A stretch of DNA of 64,000 nt from Synechococcus sp. UW140 (GCA_943371335.1 CALRUK020000021.1:4909-68908), one strand, 5' to 3'. Shown: positions 1 to 17,353, numbered from the stretch's first letter. Numbers and translations are program-made. Notes: generated by a model not told the origin, from the sequence alone.

Positions 1-1
1 T

Positions 2-2233
2 TTTCTCCCCGATCTCAACGGTGCGCAGACTGTTCTCTTCTTTGAGCAGGTAGAAGAAGAACGGAATCTGGGAGCTGTCTCGCTTTTGAGAGAGCAGGTC
101 GATTTCTGCGCTCAAATCCAAGTCAAGCGTCTTCGCGATGCTCGCGAGCCCTTTGAGGTGTTTCAGGTAGCGAGTCCGGATCAGGCCTGCGACTGTGAGA
201 TCGATCGGGATCAAGCGACCGGCGTGCATCAGACTGGAGACCTTGTCCTCGACGTAGACCGTGCCTTGCTCGAGGTCGAAGTCACTGGGCGCCTGAAACG
301 GTGAGTTCACGGGTCGGGCACCGCTCGTGCTCAGCAGTGCCACGACGACGTACGTCGCCATGGCGTTGTGATGCTCCAGCCACATGTTCGGCTCGTTGGC
401 CAGACTGTTGACGCCATCAAGAAGGAATTGAAGGCGGTCTTTGATCCATTCGTCTTTGACGTGGAGGGCACTGCCCACGCTGTTGAGAGCACCCGTCGCG
501 CTTGCATGCTGAGCCGTCAGCTTGGCGCCCGTGCCAAGCCGGGCGAGCCGGGACGCTGCCGATTGGTCGTAAGCCGCATAGGCGCAAGCACCGGGAAGCG
601 CGCTGCGAGAGTTGCTGCTCAACAAATGAGTCAGCACGGGGTCGTCGGAGTCCTCGAACACGAGCTGGGCAGCCCAGCCGCCGAACATGGCCGGAGTGAT
701 CCGCGGCGTGACGCTTGTCAGGGCTTCTTTCACCCTTCTCTCTACGTCCAGTGTCGTGCCGAACCAGCCTTCCAACTTCGTCGCCGCGGGGTCTGGCTGT
801 GCACGCTGGGCGAGAAAGGCGGTAACCGCCGCGCCCGTCTGAAGGACGAGACGCTCGGCCAGAGGCTGGATATGGGCAAGCGCGGCCGAACCAGGCTCGG
901 CGCTTCGATCACGACGTGGCCGAAGGCGGTGAAGAAATCTCCCTTGCGGGTCCCAGCGCCAATCGTCTGTGGATTCGCTAGAAATCTCCAGGCGCAGCAC
1001 CAGGCGCACAGACAAGCAGGTCTGCGCAGCCAGGTAGGTGAGAACAGCGAGGTCGTGATCGGGGTGCTCAGGTTTGCGCCAAAGGCTTTTCCACCAGTTC
1101 TTGAGAAGTTCGCGCTCGTGGGGGTTGGGTTTGCTCCAGGAATAGGGGAGGCGCTGCTGTTCTTCCACCGAGAGCAATTGGAGGACGGTGGTCTGCTTTG
1201 CCTGCTGCAAGGACGATTGGTTCTTGTCAACAGCGACCCATTCGAAGTCCGTGGACCGGGATTCCGTGCTTCCGTGCTCCATTTCGGCCTCCCAATCGGT
1301 CGGCAGATCGTCCAGGTCTTCCAGCCAATGGGCGCTCAGTTGCCCCGCGACCGAGGCCGGTGAGCGTGGGGGCAAGGCCGAGTAGGGGGAAGGAGCAACT
1401 GGAACGGCAACTGTTGGTTCGCTGTCGCGCGAGAGGACTTCGAGGTCCTCGTCGTCCGGCGCATCGATATGGGCCAATGCGCGCAAGAAGTCCCTGCGAC
1501 TGCTTTCACTACCTGGCTGCTTGTAGGTTCTGCGGGCATAGTCAACGAGGTGCTCGTGCAGCGCTCTGTAGTCTTCATCGGGCCCCAGCAGCTCCCGCAT
1601 CACAGGCGTCCAGCGGCCCGTTCCGGTTGTCTCCCGAATGCACATGCGGATGGCCAATCCGATGCGGGTTCTGCGTCTGCCAAGCTTGTCTCCACGGGCC
1701 TTTGCCTCCAGATATTGGAGGACCCACCACGCACGCAGGGTCTCCAGCCAGGCGTCGTTGGCGGGGGTATTCGTGGAAATCCGGCGAACCATGACAGCTG
1801 CCAAGGGGTGTTTTGACATGGCGCCGTCCTTCATCTGCTGAAGAATCGGTGTGTCCATGCGCAATGGCCGGTAGTGCTTTTGTATCAGTGGCGAGGTTGC
1901 GTAGGCGTCGCCGAGGGCGAGCAAATCGTCGACAAAATCGACCTCTGGAGCCCAGCGCTGGAGCCGCTCGCGGGGGCCTTCTTGACCCAGATAGTTCAGC
2001 GCTGTGCCGAGATACTCATCGGAACGCAGGGCATACTGGATCAACCCGAGCGGTTGTTCCAGGCCGAGTTGGCGAGCCCAAATCTCTGCTGCAGAGGGTA
2101 CTTCGGTGTACCCAATGGTCACTCCCGCGGTGGCTGGGCTTGGGCTAGCGGCTGGGTGCGTTTGGGTTTCGGCGGGGTCGGGTCTTTTCAACTGGGGTGG
2201 CTCGCGAGAAGAGGGGTCCTCTTTATCGGCCAT
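2..2233 (-). CDS. Large tyrosine-recombinase (integrase)-like protein, 5' part only; the ORF continues off the left edge (at least 744 codons)
   Basis: Hand translation: ATG at 2233 with SD-like GAGGG upstream and no in-frame stop down to base 2. The distal part reads HNAMATYVVVALLSTSGARPVNSPFQAPSDFDLEQGTVYVEDKVSSLMHAGRLIPI, resembling the first catalytic Arg box, the beta-hairpin Lys and the R-x-(V/I)-P-(L/I) motif of tyrosine recombinases. Open reading frame is high confidence; function is moderate. Confidence 0.65.
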   Translation of the reverse strand, partial: MADKEDPSSREPPQLKRPDPAETQTHPAASPSPATAGVTIGYTEVPSAAEIWARQLGLEQPLGLIQYALRSDEYLGTALNYLGQEGPRERLQRWAPEVDFVDDLLALGDAYATSPLIQKHYRPLRMDTPILQQMKDGAMSKHPLAAVMVRRISTNTPANDAWLETLRAWWVLQYLEAKARGDKLGRRRTRIGLAIRMCIRETTGTGRWTPVMRELLGPDEDYRALHEHLVDYARRTYKQPGSESSRRDFLRALAHIDAPDDEDLEVLSRDSEPTVAVPVAPSPYSALPPRSPASVAGQLSAHWLEDLDDLPTDWEAEMEHGSTESRSTDFEWVAVDKNQSSLQQAKQTTVLQLLSVEEQQRLPYSWSKPNPHERELLKNWWKSLWRKPEHPDHDLAVLTYLAAQTCLSVRLVLRLEISSESTDDWRWDPQGRFLHRLRPRRDRSAEPGSAALAHIQPLAERLVLQTGAAVTAFLAQRAQPDPAATKLEGWFGTTLDVERRVKEALTSVTPRITPAMFGGWAAQLVFEDSDDPVLTHLLSSNSRSALPGACAYAAYDQSAASRLARLGTGAKLTAQHASATGALNSVGSALHVKDEWIKDRLQFLLDGVNSLANEPNMWLEHHNAMATYVVVALLSTSGARPVNSPFQAPSDFDLEQGTVYVEDKVSSLMHAGRLIPIDLTVAGLIRTRYLKHLKGLASIAKTLDLDLSAEIDLLSQKRDSSQIPFFFYLLKEENSLRTVEIGEK

Positions 2234-2317
2234 TTTTCCCTCTGGAACAGCCCTTTTGTGCCCGACCTGAACCAAAGGCCAAAGTTACAAACCTACAAGC
2301 AAGGATCAAGCTCATAA

Positions 2318-2344
2318 CCCTCGGAAACGAGGGCTTTTTTGTTT
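2318..2344 (+). terminator. Intrinsic terminator, plus-strand orientation
   Basis: Stem CCCTCG, loop GAAA, stem CGAGGG, followed by CTTTTTTGTTT. Confidence 0.7.
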
Positions 2345-2432
2345 TGCGGCCTTCACAGATCTTGATGATGAAGATCTTCGCCCTGCGCCAGGTGTTGGGG
2401 TGCCGATAGCGGAAGCGCAGGTGCTGAACGAG

Positions 2433-2729
2433 CTACACAAGAAAGGCCTGAGTGGCCTTTCGCCGTTTTTGCCAGCGTTGCCCGAGGTATGTGATGTGCG
2501 CGGCGCCTGAGGCGGCGAGGAACCCTGCTCCCCAGGGCCACGCGGCTTCCTGGAGCGCGCAGCGCAGGGCCAACATCAGGCACAAGCCGGACAGCAGGTT
2601 CCACTGAAAGTCCTTGGGTGCGATTCCTTGGCCCGTGACCCGGTGGTAAACCGCCAGGGCCAGCCATTCTGCCAAGGTGATGGCAATGGCGACATCCACC
2701 AGCCACGCGCTGCTCCAGAGTGATGCCAC
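2433..2729 (-). CDS. Small PGC-associated membrane protein downstream of bchP (98 aa)
   Basis: Hydrophobic ORF (LVDVAIAITLAEWLAL...NLLSGLCLMLALRCAL...WPW) in the same orientation 34 bp after bchP; resembles the small hypothetical membrane protein I recall next to bchP in other PGCs. Confidence 0.65.
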   Translation of the reverse strand: MASLWSSAWLVDVAIAITLAEWLALAVYHRVTGQGIAPKDFQWNLLSGLCLMLALRCALQEAAWPWGAGFLAASGAAHITYLGQRWQKRRKATQAFLV

Positions 2730-2763
2730 GTTCAGCCCTCGATGCCTGGCTCGACTCTGAACT

Positions 2764-3981
2764 TCATACCCGCGCCAGACCGAGCAGGTGTCCCACGTCC
2801 TTGAGGAAGATGCGCACGTGCGCCATCGGCTTCTTGCGGGTCAGCCGCTTGTTCATGTAGGAGTCAAAGGTGAGCTGCTGCACGTCGCGGTCTTCGCAGA
2901 TCTTGACGAAGCGTTCGCGTCGCCGTTCGCTGCTGTACCAGAACCACTGCATCACGCCCAGCACGCGGAACACGGTGCCATGCAGCTTCATGAATTTCTT
3001 GCGTGCCAGGCGCAATGCGGCGGGGTTTCCGCTCACGAGCAGGGTCTGCGCGGCCTCGGCCGCAAGCTGACCACCGACCATGGCGTAGTAGATGCCTTCG
3101 CCAGAGGCCGGCGCCACCACGCCAGCCGCGTCACCGGCCAGCACCACGTCGCGGCCGTTGTCCCAGCGCGGGAGCGGCTTCATCGGAATCGGTGCACCTT
3201 CGCGCCGCAGCGTCTCGGCGCCAGCGAGTCCGCACACATCCCGCATGTGCTGCACAGAGCCTCGCAGTGAAAACCCCTTGTCGGCGCTACCGGTGCCGAT
3301 GCTCAGCGTGTCGCCGTGGGGGAAGACCCAGCCGTAGAAGTCGGGTGAGAAGCGGCCTTGGTAGTAGACGTCGCAACGGCTGTCGTCGTAGTCGACGGGT
3401 CGTTGTGCTGCTGCCGGGGCCTTCAGGATCTCGTGGTACGCGAACACGTAGCGTGTGCGCTCTGCACCCGGCACGCCGCCTTGGCGGGCCACTTCCGAGC
3501 GGGCGCCGTCTGCGCCGACCACACAGCGCGCGCGAACCATGCAGGGAAGGCCGTCGCTCTGCGCACGGCGTTCCCGCACCGTGTAATGAACCTCGGTGAG
3601 GCCTTCGGCATCGCGGGCCAGCGAGACAAACTTGCCGGTGCGCCGCACGGCACCCGCCGCCTGCGCACGGGCCCGCAGCCATTCGTCGAAGCGGTCGCGA
3701 TCGACCATGCCGACAAAACCGTTGTCGATGGGGATGTCCACCCGGTGGCTGGATGGCGCGATCATGCGCGCGCACCGCGCCTTGGCCACCAGGAGTTCGT
3801 CGGGAATCTCGAAGTCTTTGATCAGCCTGGGCGGGATCGCGCCGCCGCAGGGTTTGACCCGCCCGGCCCGGTCCAGCAGCAGCACTGAGCGGCCCAGGCG
3901 TGCCAGTTCGTGCGCAGCCGTGGCGCCAGCGGGGCCGCCGCCAACGACCACCACATCAAAGATTTCGTTGCTGGTGTTCAT
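2764..3981 (-). CDS. bchP: Geranylgeranyl reductase (405 aa)
   Basis: FDVVVVGGGPAG dinucleotide fold, KPCGGAIP, GADG, FYGWVFPHG, GDAAG..SGEGIYYA motifs; start moved to MNTSNEIF. Confidence 0.96.
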   Translation of the reverse strand: MNTSNEIFDVVVVGGGPAGATAAHELARLGRSVLLLDRAGRVKPCGGAIPPRLIKDFEIPDELLVAKARCARMIAPSSHRVDIPIDNGFVGMVDRDRFDEWLRARAQAAGAVRRTGKFVSLARDAEGLTEVHYTVRERRAQSDGLPCMVRARCVVGADGARSEVARQGGVPGAERTRYVFAYHEILKAPAAAQRPVDYDDSRCDVYYQGRFSPDFYGWVFPHGDTLSIGTGSADKGFSLRGSVQHMRDVCGLAGAETLRREGAPIPMKPLPRWDNGRDVVLAGDAAGVVAPASGEGIYYAMVGGQLAAEAAQTLLVSGNPAALRLARKKFMKLHGTVFRVLGVMQWFWYSSERRRERFVKICEDRDVQQLTFDSYMNKRLTRKKPMAHVRIFLKDVGHLLGLARV

Positions 3982-3985
3982 GCGT

Positions 3986-5341
3986 TCAGCCGCGTGGGGC
4001 TCCGATGGCCACACCCACGGTGCGGCTGGGTGAGGCCGCCGCCGATCGTGGCGGTGGGGCGGAGATGCGCCAGGCCAGAAGAGCCGCGGCGATAAAGGTC
4101 AGCGCTTCAAGCGCAAAGACAAATGCGTACGCGGTTCCCGGGGCCGAAATGAGAAGGTGGGCGAGGTCGCTGGCGCCCGTGCCCACGAGACCGCCGAGCC
4201 CGAATGCGATGGCCTGCGCTGCGCCCCACAGGCCCATGCGCACACCCTCGCGCGAGCCCTGTCCCTCGTTGGCCAGCCGCATCATCGAGCCGATGGCACC
4301 GATGGAGAAAGCGCCATTCGCTGCCCCCAAACCGAACACGAGCGCCTTGAGCGCGTCACCTTGACCGCTGACGCCCGCCATCACCAGACCCAACAGCGCG
4401 AAGGCCGACGCGATGCAGCCGCCAATGGTCCAGCCGCGCAGGGAACCAAGCCAGCGCAAGGCGGTAAAGCGGGCGGCCAACGCGCCCGAGAGGGCGACCA
4501 GGAGCATGCCGCAGAGCACACCTCCGTGCTGCACGCCAGAGAGCTGGGTGGATGCGCCTGGGCTGTAGCCGAACACGGTACCGGCAAATGGCTCCAGGAT
4601 CAGGTCTTGCGCGCTGTACGCGAGCATGGACACGAACACGAACACCGTGAAGCGCCGAGCGACGGGTTCGCGCCAGACCTCGGAGAGGGCTTGACGAAAG
4701 TCTGGTTTCGCCACGTGGCCAGCCTGTGCCTGCGCGGCATGGGTGACATGGCCCTCCAGGCCACGCAACGCCAGCAGCGTCACCCCGAAGGCCAGCAGGG
4801 AAACCGTTGAAGTCACCAGCAGCAAGCGCTCGGGTGAGTAGGGGTCCAGCCACTTGCCGGCCAGGCCGGCGGTGATGGCAAAGCCCGCGATCATCATCAT
4901 CCAGACCAATGTGGCGGCACCGCCCCGGCGTGCATCGGGCACGCGCTTGGCCAGCATTACCAGCAGTGACGTGCCGCTGGCGCTCACGCCCAGCCCGACT
5001 AGCGTGAAGCCGAGCACGGCCAGCGCGATGCCCGCGGGACGGTGGGTCGCCATCCAGACGGTGCCCAAAGCGGCCACGACGCCACCCACGCCGAGCACCG
5101 CCATGCCGCCCACGATCCACGGTGTGCGCCGTCCGCCGACATCCGAGCCGTGACCCATGCGGGGCCGGGCCATCTGCACGAGGTAATGCAGCGCCACCAG
5201 AAAGCCGGGCAGCAGTGCCGGCAACGCCAGCTCGACCACCATCACGCGGTTGAGGGTCGATGTCGTCAGCACCACGATGGCGCCCAGCGACGCCTGCACA
5301 AGACCCAGTCGGGCAATGCTGGCCCATCCAAAAGGTTTCAT
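3986..5341 (-). CDS. PucC/BCD-family MFS pigment transporter (bch2/orf428-type, 451 aa)
   Basis: RLGLVQASLGAIVVLTTSTLNRVMVVEL, GRRTPWI, QDLILEPFAG, EGVRMGLWGAAQA; lies between bchG and bchP with an ATGA overlap. Confidence 0.9.
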   Translation of the reverse strand: MKPFGWASIARLGLVQASLGAIVVLTTSTLNRVMVVELALPALLPGFLVALHYLVQMARPRMGHGSDVGGRRTPWIVGGMAVLGVGGVVAALGTVWMATHRPAGIALAVLGFTLVGLGVSASGTSLLVMLAKRVPDARRGGAATLVWMMMIAGFAITAGLAGKWLDPYSPERLLLVTSTVSLLAFGVTLLALRGLEGHVTHAAQAQAGHVAKPDFRQALSEVWREPVARRFTVFVFVSMLAYSAQDLILEPFAGTVFGYSPGASTQLSGVQHGGVLCGMLLVALSGALAARFTALRWLGSLRGWTIGGCIASAFALLGLVMAGVSGQGDALKALVFGLGAANGAFSIGAIGSMMRLANEGQGSREGVRMGLWGAAQAIAFGLGGLVGTGASDLAHLLISAPGTAYAFVFALEALTFIAAALLAWRISAPPPRSAAASPSRTVGVAIGAPRG

Positions 5342-6213
5342 GGCATCCCCCTCAAGGCAAAGGCGCTGACCATCATGCCGGCCACGAACAGTGGCACGCC
5401 AAACCCGCTGTACCAGAGAGCCCGGGCCGACGGGTCGGCCAGGAAGCGGCGCATCAGCACACCTTGCGCCACCAGCAGGGCTGCCACACCCGCGGCGTGG
5501 GCTGGTTGATCCCAATGCAGCAGCAGGCCGATCACCGCCACTTGCGGCAGCACCATGAACCAGCAGGCCACGCGCGCGGCCCGGTCCACGCCGAGTTGCA
5601 CCGGCAGCGAACGCACGCCCATCTGGCGGTCACCGGCCACGGCCTTGAAGTCATTGAGGGTCATGATGCCGTGGGTGCCTGCGCTGTAAAGCGCCGCCAG
5701 CGCCAGGGACTCCCCGCCGGGCATGGCGCCGCCAGCCATCACCGCTGCGCCTGTGACCCACGCGATGCCTTCGTAGCTGACACCGCAGGCCGCGTTGCCC
5801 CACCAACCGTTTTCCTTCAGACGCACCGGCGGTGCGCTGTACGCCCAGGCCAGCAACAGGCCCAGCGCGGCGGCGCCGAAACCCCAGGGGCCCAGCGCGA
5901 GCGCCACCAGCAAGGACACACCCGTCCAGGCGATCGCGAGGTACAGGCCCCACTGGCCGGGCATGCGCCCTGAGGGAATGGGGCGCTGTGGCTCGTTGAT
6001 GGCGTCGACGTGCCGGTCAAACCAGTCATTGACGGCCTGGCTGGTGGCGCAGACCAGCGGGCCGGCCAAGGCAATGCCCACAATGGCCATCCACCAGCGA
6101 TCCTGCAGCGACACCCCGGAAGCCACCACCCCGCAGGCGAAAGCCCACATGGGCGGGAACCAGGTGATGGGCTTGAACAGCTCGGTGACGGCCGACAGGG
6201 CGGGGCGTTGCAT
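5338..6213 (-). CDS. bchG: Bacteriochlorophyll synthase
   Basis: LFKPITWFPPMWAF, NDWFDRHVDAINEPQRPIPSGR, GIMTLNDFKAVAGD UbiA-family motifs. Confidence 0.97.
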   Translation of the reverse strand: MQRPALSAVTELFKPITWFPPMWAFACGVVASGVSLQDRWWMAIVGIALAGPLVCATSQAVNDWFDRHVDAINEPQRPIPSGRMPGQWGLYLAIAWTGVSLLVALALGPWGFGAAALGLLLAWAYSAPPVRLKENGWWGNAACGVSYEGIAWVTGAAVMAGGAMPGGESLALAALYSAGTHGIMTLNDFKAVAGDRQMGVRSLPVQLGVDRAARVACWFMVLPQVAVIGLLLHWDQPAHAAGVAALLVAQGVLMRRFLADPSARALWYSGFGVPLFVAGMMVSAFALRGMP

Positions 6214-6380: not shown

Positions 6381-7832
6381 TCAGTGCACGTCGTCGCTGG
6401 TGCCTTCGATGATGCCGAAGCGGCGCAGTTTGATGTAGAGGCTCTGGCGCGAGAGACCGAGCATCTCGGCCGCCGACGCGCGGTTGTCGCCCGTGAGCTC
6501 CAGCGCTGCCTCGATGCACAGCTGCTCGATGAGGTCGGTGGTTTCGCGCACGATGTCCTTGAGCGGCAGGCGGCCCACCAACTCGGTCATCTGGCTCGCC
6601 GAGCGGGGCAGTTCCTTGCTGGCGCGCGGGTCGTTGTTCAGCCGTCGGCCCATGTCGCGGATGGTGAAGCCCAGGCAAGGGTGGGCGCCACCCACCACCG
6701 ACACAGCCGACACCTCCACCTCCGAGTGCGAGCCGAATTCGCCACGCAGCTGCGTGGCAAACAGCCGAACCGTGCCGTGCTGGCGCAGGTTGGACAGCAG
6801 AACCCGGAAGTCCACGCCCGTGCGTCCCAGCCAGCGGTCGAGCATCTCGCCGCGGGCCTGCTCTTCGGTGCTGAGCTGGCCCATGTCCAGGAAGGCACGG
6901 TTCACGCTGAGGATGCGCCCCTCGGTGTCTGTGACCACCAACGCGTCGGGTGCCGATTCCATCACCTGCATCAGCTGCTGGCGCGCGGCGGGCATGCTCA
7001 GCTCGGCCGCGCCTTGCCGGGTCACGCGCACCAGGAAATACAAGCGGTTGTCCTGGCGGAACTGCGTGGCCGTGATGAACATCGGTTCGTTGCTGCCCAT
7101 CAGGCGCACCGGGCAGGGGTCGGCACGGCCGGTGGCGCGCAAGCGTTCCACCATGGTTTGCACGTCGGCCTGGTTGTCGGGGTGCAGGCTGTCGGTGAGC
7201 GACCAGCCTGGCTGGCGTGCAGCCTCACCCAGCAGTTCGTAGGCGGCGGGGTTGGCTTCTTCCAGCTTGTCGATGTCGCCCTCGAAGATCAGCACCGGCT
7301 CGGAGGCGAGCTGGAACAGCAGGCGGTAGCGGGTTTCGATCTGGCGCAGGCGCCAGTAGTCGCGCTCCATGGTCTGCTGAGCGGTGACCAGGCGCTGCTG
7401 CAGCACCTCTTGCGGGCGCAGATCGCGACCAAACGCGACGCTGCGAACCCCTCCGCCATCGCTGCGGATGGGGGCCACCGAGTAGGCGATCGGCAGATCT
7501 CCGCCGTCGTTGAGCCGCTGGTTCACCTGGCGCCAGCGCACGCCGTCCGAGGTCACTGCGCCCTGGGTCTTGAGCAAGGCCTCGATCTTGGGCTGGCTGT
7601 CGGCAGAAACGGTCTGCACCCACGATTTGCCCAGCCAGTGCTGGCAGCCGCTCTCAAGCATGTCTTCACTGCCCAGGGCCATGTCGCGGATGATGCCCTC
7701 GTGGTCGAGGATCAGCACCACATCCGCAGCTGCGGTGATCAGGTCAGCGACGGCATCCCCGCTCATGTCGGCCAGGAGCGGGACGGGGTTCAGAAACTGC
7801 CCCTTCACCATCGCTTGAATGCCCTGGGTCAT
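6381..7832 (-). CDS. ppsR: PpsR/CrtJ photosynthesis gene repressor
   Basis: PAS domains, Q-linker (QQRLVTAQQTMERDYWRLRQIETRYRLLF), C-terminal Fis-type HTH CIEAALELTGDNRASAAEMLGLSRQSLY with the redox Cys. Confidence 0.96.
   Translation of the reverse strand: MTQGIQAMVKGQFLNPVPLLADMSGDAVADLITAAADVVLILDHEGIIRDMALGSEDMLESGCQHWLGKSWVQTVSADSQPKIEALLKTQGAVTSDGVRWRQVNQRLNDGGDLPIAYSVAPIRSDGGGVRSVAFGRDLRPQEVLQQRLVTAQQTMERDYWRLRQIETRYRLLFQLASEPVLIFEGDIDKLEEANPAAYELLGEAARQPGWSLTDSLHPDNQADVQTMVERLRATGRADPCPVRLMGSNEPMFITATQFRQDNRLYFLVRVTRQGAAELSMPAARQQLMQVMESAPDALVVTDTEGRILSVNRAFLDMGQLSTEEQARGEMLDRWLGRTGVDFRVLLSNLRQHGTVRLFATQLRGEFGSHSEVEVSAVSVVGGAHPCLGFTIRDMGRRLNNDPRASKELPRSASQMTELVGRLPLKDIVRETTDLIEQLCIEAALELTGDNRASAAEMLGLSRQSLYIKLRRFGIIEGTSDDVH

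Positions 7833-9141: not shown

Positions 9142-17353
<8,212 letters not shown>

Follow-up and report, generated by a model that had tools for sequence, protein, structure and literature searches.

The open reading frame at the left edge of the window, the whole 64,000-nucleotide stretch of Synechococcus sp. UW140 DNA that we analysed (G000:C21:4909-68908), is with a probability of about 80% the start of the integrase gene of an island inserted in the initiator tRNA-Met gene beside the bchP end of the photosynthesis cluster. We propose that the island entered this tRNA gene, which adjoins the bchP cluster end in a relative with an empty site. The integrase is a single chain of ~1,970 residues with at least two recombinase domains, of which domain 2 probably cleaves and rejoins DNA and domain 1 may assist without cleaving. 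Anticodon-loop sequence, 119 nt before the start codon, would mark the end of the element-side attachment site, and the giant gene would read into the island, followed by a convergent partner gene of 277 aa. Tyrosine integrases that target tRNA genes are already known; what is new here is a giant double-domain integrase in a single chain.

The first-pass annotation of this DNA had described a stop-free minus-strand frame at positions 2..2233. It is contained in an open frame at window 2..2275 (-), which encodes 758 aa from a TTG and exits the left window edge. When the 4,908 contig bases to the left were added, the frame extended to C21:1181-7183 (2000 codons counted from the TTG, 2003 from stop to stop), and the gene is nearly three times as long as the open frame inside the window. 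Codon 29 (TTG, window 2189-2191) is likely the start, with a product of 1972 aa, because the N-terminus MKRPDP is found there in P0002 (99% identical) and P0003 (69%). One additional base upstream of codon 29, at L002 7125, was present in all four runs compared with the genome. Residue numbers follow the 2000-codon frame, not the 1972-aa product. Full-length relatives at 99% to 25% identity (25 matches) indicate that the gene is real and not a chance frame. Its GC content is 0.603 and its GC3 0.70, compared with a GC3 of 0.77-0.85 in bchP, the pucC-like gene and bchG and a GC content of 0.678 in the window. The foreign composition noticed by eye on first reading is partly borne out, the shift being modest. 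Feature coordinates are collected in Table 1.

Table 1. Features of the giant integrase gene and its surroundings (window positions unless a contig is named)
Feature	Position	Strand	Remarks
Giant integrase gene, 5' 730 codons	2..2191	(-)	open frame; start common to P0002 and P0003; family
Giant integrase gene, whole	G000:C21:1181-7099		1972 aa from the likely TTG; open frame continues to window 2275
Recombinase domain 1, first two thirds (residues 601-758 of ~601-834)	2..475	(-)
Conserved residues of domain 1	Arg654, 314-316; Lys678, 242-244		N773, R776, H799 and Y810 left of the window
Conserved region of no named family, residues 342-600	476..1252	(-)	invariant W380, E387, R450, R525, Y566
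Helical N-terminal domain, residues 60-285	1421..2098	(-)	predicted model: pLDDT pattern, helices
Leader, 119 nt, start codon to core	2192..2310	(-)
Core CTCATAACC	2311..2319	(+)	positions 33-41 of the initiator-type tRNA-Met gene (anticodon loop, 3' stem)
Terminator hairpin CCCTCGGAAACGAGGGCTTTTTTGTTTT	2318..2345	(+)	equals the chromosomal terminator after tRNA-Met in G018, 100% over 27 nt
Small membrane-like ORF, 98 aa	2433..2729	(-)	first conserved gene on the photosynthesis-cluster side, outside the element
bchP-like gene	2764..4014	(-)	cluster edge, outside the element; named from translation

The class of the protein had been read correctly as a tyrosine recombinase (YR). The motifs quoted for it lie at residues 652-655 (GARP), 665-668 (DFDL), 676-678 (EDK) and 687-691 (RLIPI), PF00589 matches two stretches above its cut-off (34.7 bits against 27.1, best at residues 664-805) and also matches the relatives, and the YR catalytic fold of the superfamily is present, with the catalytic set in domain 2. 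NCBIfam returned only Xer-type models for the giant protein, of the XerD/XerC type at residues 1408-1620 and of the XerA type at residues 643-804, all far under the family cut-offs. TIGR02224 and TIGR02225 gave 31.9 and 25.6 bits against equivalog cut-offs of 329.6 and 335.15, which places the protein outside XerC and XerD. PHROGs gave an integrase match at residues 1410-1690. The ~600 unrecognisable N-terminal residues of the first reading were also borne out, as Pfam is blank before residue 643 and the atlas has no family for residues 60-600; neither Pfam nor the atlas names a family for the last ~300 residues. A search of the PDB by sequence gave nothing useful, and hhalign between segments of the protein was uninformative here, with probabilities of at most 2.1% even for the two clear YR domains.

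The catalytic positions were compared across two family alignments, one of 28 and one of 57 sequences, with identities down to 15-17%. In domain 2, R1494, K1535, R1615, H1674 and Y1684 are invariant in all 28 and all 57 sequences, and H1612 (H1612-x-x-R1615) is invariant in the 28 and nearly invariant among the 57. Residues ~1303-1701 are a complete integrase module with core-binding and catalytic parts and the canonical Arg-Lys-His-Arg-His-Tyr set, and this module probably performs the DNA cutting and rejoining. The domain inside the window, first taken for the catalytic one, is therefore not the main one; the complete active site lies ~700 residues on, outside the window. In domain 1, R654, K678, R776 and H799 are invariant in 57 of 57 sequences, and the catalytic set is incomplete. 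The H-x-x-R, H/W and Y residues that had been predicted to the left of the window were located as N773-x-x-R776, H799 and Y810, but the first His is an Asn and the tyrosine is not conserved, its column holding Y, F, S, D, H, V, L or T across the family. Domain 1 may be a non-cleaving partner or a DNA-holding subunit, a role that in ordinary integrases is filled by a second protomer or an accessory protein. Its proposed inactivity is drawn only from the non-conservation of Y810 in relatives, this protein itself having Y810 at the expected place. In Flp recombinase a tyrosine is donated in trans to the YR active site, and by analogy this is a possible model for domain 1.

AlphaFold models predicted from 57-sequence alignments had a pLDDT of 84.6 and a pTM of 0.79 for residues 60-1190, and 83.3 and 0.72 for residues 1191-2000. 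The helical N-terminal domain, for which no structural match was listed, is followed in the model by a low-confidence linker (residues 285-341). Part of residues 342-600 aligns weakly with topoisomerase IB cores. Weak structural matches of the predicted models suggest a core-binding-like and telomere-resolvase-like pair at residues ~872-1149 and a topoisomerase-IB-like fold at residues ~376-562.

The insertion site was identified by comparison with G018, the congener most similar across the bchP flank (88%). There rplQ, tRNA-Met(CAT), a 30-nt spacer, the terminator, the small ORF and bchP are contiguous and the giant protein has no match, as in the empty site of a tRNA-gene genomic island. A C1/A72 mismatch and a GGG/CCC anticodon stem are textbook marks of an initiator tRNA, and with both features read from its sequence the target tRNA-Met is an initiator. 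In our genome the intact rpoA-rplQ-tRNA-Met-spacer-terminator unit is on contig C19, 91% identical to G018, and on its 3' side come TAGCC(C) repeats and 1.8 kb carrying other genes, after which the contig breaks off in an IS-type end; the repeats and the TTGTGACCNTTGGG motif both lie 3' of the intact tRNA-Met. On C21, 119 nt beyond the start of the giant gene, GCTCATAACCC (tRNA positions 32-42) runs directly into the G018-type terminator, after which come the small ORF and bchP. Compared with G018 and locus L045, ~68 nt (tRNA 42-77 and the spacer) are absent between core and terminator. The earlier proposal that an integrative element abuts the photosynthesis cluster is thus supported by the empty site in the congener G018, by the tRNA core beside the giant gene and by copies of the gene elsewhere.

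The core CTCATAACC forms the final bases of a conserved unit of 7,079 bp (L002 149-7227). It occurs once in the 64-kb window, and 6 of 100 shuffles also give one occurrence. The displaced tRNA fragment of this copy is 10-11 nt long and weak on its own (z 2.7, with shuffles of equal score), and a degenerate tRNA 3' half left of the core, hinted at by MAFFT, was not significant (63 of 1000 shuffles equal). Rfam found no match in the first 148 nt of C21 or on the far side of contig C9. Congener matches to the C21 flank begin at L002 7341-7380, and the bchP flank is matched in 41 of 60 congeners. The promoter and the element-side attachment arm would be expected within the 119-nt leader.

The intact tRNA-Met and the core are on two contigs that are not joined in the assembly. 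Comparing the gene order of G018 with that of C19 and C21, at least 9 kb would be inserted at tRNA-Met, the giant gene lying at the distal end and pointing into the insert. Since C19 ends after 1.8 kb and C21 begins 1,180 bp beyond the gene on its island side, the island is in pieces, and we infer its size, cargo and the linkage of its ends.

Cores derived from tRNA genes also accompany the relatives. A second giant integrase in the same genome, a paralog on C9 with 21% identity, has tRNA-Arg(CCG) positions 32-76 beside it, upstream and on the opposite strand (E 6e-19). In L045, tRNA-Met 32-77 is likewise upstream of the giant gene on the opposite strand (E 3.5e-17). Both of these fragments are clean and 45-46 nt long, and shorter tRNA-derived pieces are upstream in L014 and L046. 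Among the first nine loci CTCATAACC was present in five and absent from the remaining 168 kb of these loci; it is 105-118 nt from the first start codon in L045-L048, and here 35 nt, or 119 nt from the corrected start. We extended the set by 20 loci to 29, of which some are near-duplicate MAGs (L079/L080, L074/L075) and not all are independent. An anticodon-loop core was upstream on the opposite strand in 23 of the 29 (Met 12, Arg(CCG) 7, Pro(CGG) 4), and six had none of the three. Control matches in the rest of the loci (501,082 nt) numbered 0 for Met, 6 for Arg and 5 for Pro. These three specific cores replaced a scan with 9-mers of all tRNA anticodon arms, which was dropped with a background of 0.68 per 500 nt. 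In relatives, the two flanks of the C9 paralog do not adjoin each other, and neither G018 nor G023 has a tRNA at the corresponding site. No whole tRNA gene was found within ±10 kb of 11 other loci, and no direct repeats bracketing the gene within ±10 kb in ten loci (L044 gave no rows) nor in L002; only chance-level 10-16-mers appeared.

What follows the core is variable. The whole tRNA 3' half is kept in four of the 23 core-bearing loci; in nine the tRNA sequence picks up again within the T-loop or T-stem (positions 54-65), in one it does so at position 47, and eight have no recognisable tRNA sequence when compared with the tRNAs of this genome. Three copies of the unit that are 99.3% identical carry three different sequences from the same base onward, which may reflect recurrent core-anchored deletions, or the 3' edge of the core may be the exchange point with varying partner sites. 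In a less probable alternative, the island did integrate but the tRNA part of its right attachment site has been deleted and this copy can no longer excise, so that the gene is intact and an idle passenger. The ~68 nt lost after the core and the IS debris at the end of C19 would fit such a stranded copy. However, the gene has no lesion and shares 99.3% identity with copies elsewhere, and a shortened junction is the rule in the family, so it may be normal and not damage. Among the contigs compared, no excision product and no sign of recombination appeared.

The conserved unit, consisting of the partner ORF, the giant gene and the core, recurs in other backgrounds with 99.3% identity. X2 and X7 contigs match L002 149 to 7227 with 49-50 differences and then continue into unlike DNA, that of X3 also ends at 7227, and the metagenome contig L055 matches the same interval at 99.29%. 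In thirteen DNA runs (freshwater, soil, groundwater, ballast water, wastewater and one labelled organism), 0.43-0.50 of the words of window 1-4000 were present. What lies on the right side of the core varies: the terminator and bchP in this genome, TAGCC repeats in X7, and in L055 and X2 AACCA with a spacer, a further terminator and a putative P-type ATPase gene (read from the flank). To the left of position 149, this genome has a 148-nt sequence that three congeners carry behind a conserved gene, each with different DNA after it, and L055 and X7 have a truncated IS3-type transposase gene, the last 30 nt being common to both. The exact left-end 40-mer was absent from the species-representative genomes. 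A module of ~150 nt on C19 (tRNA 3' part, spacer, terminator and TAGCC repeats) is 91% identical to the DNA adjoining the core in L045, so the two halves are contiguous there, as in an attP or a tandem array.

These limits raise the doubtful possibility that the unit is a complete site-specific transposon without cargo, of the Tn554 or strand-biased circularizing element (SE) type. Its limits at 149 and 7227 are sharp in X2, X7 and L055, the junction 148|149 is exactly where two different left neighbours adjoin it, and its size is near that of the 7.2-kb SE described in PMC10214605. On the other hand, X7 and L055 share their left neighbour and differ to the right of the core, so that DNA left of 149 travels along and the mobile entity is larger than the unit. 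Further, the left limit has neither a copy of the core nor, by eye, a terminal inverted repeat, and the C19 module next to the core in L045 puts an attachment arm outside the unit. We therefore read the 7,079 bp as the conserved integration module of an island.

Two other explanations are very improbable. The first-pass annotation had raised, as its minor option, that the element belongs to the machinery by which the photosynthesis gene cluster was moved; it does lie 113 nt from the first cluster-side ORF, and the cluster edge adjoins the tRNA gene in G018, but G018 carries the cluster at this tRNA and lacks the giant gene, the window contains a single core, the unit sits beside the unrelated putative P-type ATPase gene in L055, and the giant protein occurs in only 4 of 36 congeners compared with 41 of 60 for the bchP flank. 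Nor is the protein likely to be a recombinase-fold DNA-binding regulator or a defence component, as the YR-fold phage regulators MrpR and SroF among the weaker structural matches and the lack of a conserved tyrosine in domain 1 might suggest, since domain 2 keeps its catalytic residues, tyrosine included, in 57 sequences down to 15% identity, tRNA-derived cores lie at a fixed upstream place, and PADLOC gave no match.

The preferred reading, a tRNA-gene island with a giant integrase, can be set beside known systems. Ordinary integrases are about one fifth of its length. Like classical tRNA-gene islands, the element has a tyrosine integrase at the island end, a tRNA gene as target and an empty site in a relative; if C19 and C21 are linked, it would also have an intact tRNA on one side and a tRNA 3' fragment from the anticodon loop on the other. 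Unlike classical integrases, the giant protein combines two or more YR-fold domains in a single chain with ~600 residues at the N-terminus and ~300 at the C-terminus that belong to no known family, and the tRNA fragment usually stops short directly behind the anticodon-loop core. Classical integrases of tRNA-gene islands and prophages are known as the 'Islander' paradigm (PMC4383910). By sequence and by fold, domain 2 best matches XerC/XerD and XerH-type proteins. XerC and XerD are two different YR units of which only one cleaves at a given step; the giant integrase differs in fusing two units in one polypeptide, in targeting a tRNA gene and not dif, and in scoring far under the Xer family cut-off (33.8 bits against 279).

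Oversized or multiple tyrosine recombinases occur in RIT elements and the gamma-mobile-trio, and a RIT element has three adjacent tyrosine recombinase genes. The first reading had named RIT elements, GInts and the gamma-mobile-trio as multi-integrase settings of oversized tyrosine recombinases. However, no partner integrase gene was found next to the giant gene in the first five annotated loci (L002, L013, L014, L015 and L016) or in the other flanks scanned, so the gene is solitary and the element belongs to none of the three types. According to PMC10214605, Tn554, GInt and SE are compact elements of ~7 kb with site preference that encode an ordinary YR, a large YR, a YR-like protein without RHRY and a small accessory protein, the separate genes intA, tfp/ginC and intB forming an operon together with srap/tnpC. 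By that description, our unit resembles them in its compact size of about 7 kb and differs in having one giant gene and one convergent ORF in place of an operon.

A more speculative and rather unlikely extension is that the single chain combines three or four recombinase or topoisomerase-IB-type folds, only the last of which cleaves, as a self-contained recombination machine. A chain of this kind might recognise the anticodon arm as well as the T arm, two hairpin-encoding parts of the tRNA gene. This would account for the frequent junction in which the anticodon-loop core is joined straight to the T-loop/acceptor 3' strand, and for three 99.3%-identical copies with different post-core sequences from the same base.

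The partner ORF (277-286 aa) is convergent with the 3' end of the giant gene and overlaps it (L002 356/383-1216). It is homologous to an ORF at the same place in L045 (E ~3e-14) and has two database relatives, at 98% and 43% identity. The family scan and PADLOC assigned it to no known family, and the convergent ORFs of other loci have no detectable similarity to it, that of L046 being an alpha/beta hydrolase. The RNA run X15 contained contigs of both the giant gene and the partner gene at 99% identity or more, with DNA carry-over possible.

A word-indexed protein search returned 25 relatives of 1280-1984 aa. The exhaustive search with residues 1-1000 returned 785 cluster representatives at E<=1e-3, 362 at E<=1e-10 and 229 at E<=1e-30, and among the matches listed (150) nearly all family members are 1750-1930 aa long. 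Carriers include Hydrogenophaga, Rhodoferax, Rubrivivax, Sideroxydans, Gallionellaceae, Sulfuritalea, Methylotenera, Zoogloea, Marinobacter, Vreelandella, Neptuniibacter, Neptunomonas and Oleiphilus. Of the four congeners with a match, two have weak or partial ones, and 1 of 24 genomes of other families has the protein. The three Arg-type proteins first examined are 25-31% identical to one another and 21-22% to the protein of the window. Phage and plasmid collections contained no full-length relative; the phage collection gave no match to the giant protein, and the plasmid collection matched only ~450-aa Acinetobacter integrases at residues 1259-1696 (23-25% identity). No description of the family was found in full-text literature, a coverage that mostly leaves out subscription journals.

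The insertion accounts for the difference between the photosynthesis-cluster edge of this genome and that of its nearest relative, and the evidence speaks against the element having carried the cluster. The family appears as a well-populated group of single-chain enzymes of ~1,800-2,000 residues in Beta- and Gammaproteobacteria, unlike the textbook integrases that target tRNA genes. Its members pair an intact recombinase domain with a tyrosine-less one in the same chain, and may thus be a natural test of the number of active sites that a tyrosine-recombinase synapse needs and of what the fused 'partner' domain does. The giant integrase is also a candidate for a single-protein, highly site-specific integration tool.

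The genome studied (G000) encodes a second giant integrase on another contig (C9), which is 21% identical to the giant double-domain tyrosine integrase of contig C21 and is accompanied by a convergent 337-aa ORF of its own. A 45-nt 3' fragment of tRNA-Arg(CCG) lies about 180 nt upstream of this paralog, and the intact copy of this tRNA gene is on a different contig. The flanks of the paralog are separated by more than 1 Mb in the complete genome of a congener (G068). In a compared locus from a MAG (L062, contig CAVUJN010000016.1), the tRNA-Arg(CCG) upstream of the giant gene is a near-complete gene (73 nt, 90%), not a fragment. This locus has a second copy of the anticodon-loop core, CTCCGAAG, 67 nt closer to the giant gene.

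At the C21 locus (L002), one C at position 7125 (window 2217) is absent in G000 and present in all four runs compared. This 1-nt difference falls in the leader that precedes the likely start codon, and the long TTG-started frame of the window is therefore partly accidental.

Coordinates of features in and around the compared loci
Feature	Position	Strand	Description
Photosynthesis cluster edge	window 2433-6213	all minus	98-aa membrane-like ORF, bchP-like, pucC/MFS-like, bchG-like, in order; gene names are our reading of translations
Terminator CCCTCGGAAACGAGGGCTTTTTTGTTTT	window 2318-2345		27 nt
148-nt sequence	L002 1-148 = G000:C21:1-148		left of the window
Second giant integrase gene	G000:C9:20960-26512 = L013 9961-15513	minus	1850 aa
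Intact tRNA-Arg(CCG)	C13:87553-87628		
TAGCC(C) repeats and TTGTGACCNTTGGG	L039 (G000:C19) about 1760-1810; L045 about 9610-9660; run X7		
IS3-type element end	L039 1-149 (G000:C19 end)		identical to G000:C40:1-149

The 148-nt sequence at the left end of the C21 locus is matched in three congeners with 87-97% identity, after the stop codon of a conserved gene, and the DNA beyond it is different in each of the three. A 74-nt part of it occurs in five copies in G071. The 148-nt sequence does not represent a tRNA, and Rfam gives no match for it; possibly it is a repeat or structured element that marks another variable junction. On C19, the IS3-type end disrupts a DJ-1/AraC-like regulator gene, and at least two contig breaks are due to this element end.

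Copies of the terminator with 96-100% identity are found in more than 12 genomes of the genus, at one to three separate places per congener genome. At two loci and in a sequencing run, TAGCC(C) occurs in three to four repeats after the tRNA-Met terminator, together with the TTGTGACCNTTGGG motif, and the TAACCC of the core is similar to the TAGCCC of these repeats. Hydrogenophaga pseudoflava (L054) has a related TTGTGAC motif set after its intact tRNA-Met. The repeats, TTGTGACCNTTGGG and the TTGTGAC motif set are candidate protein-binding sites.
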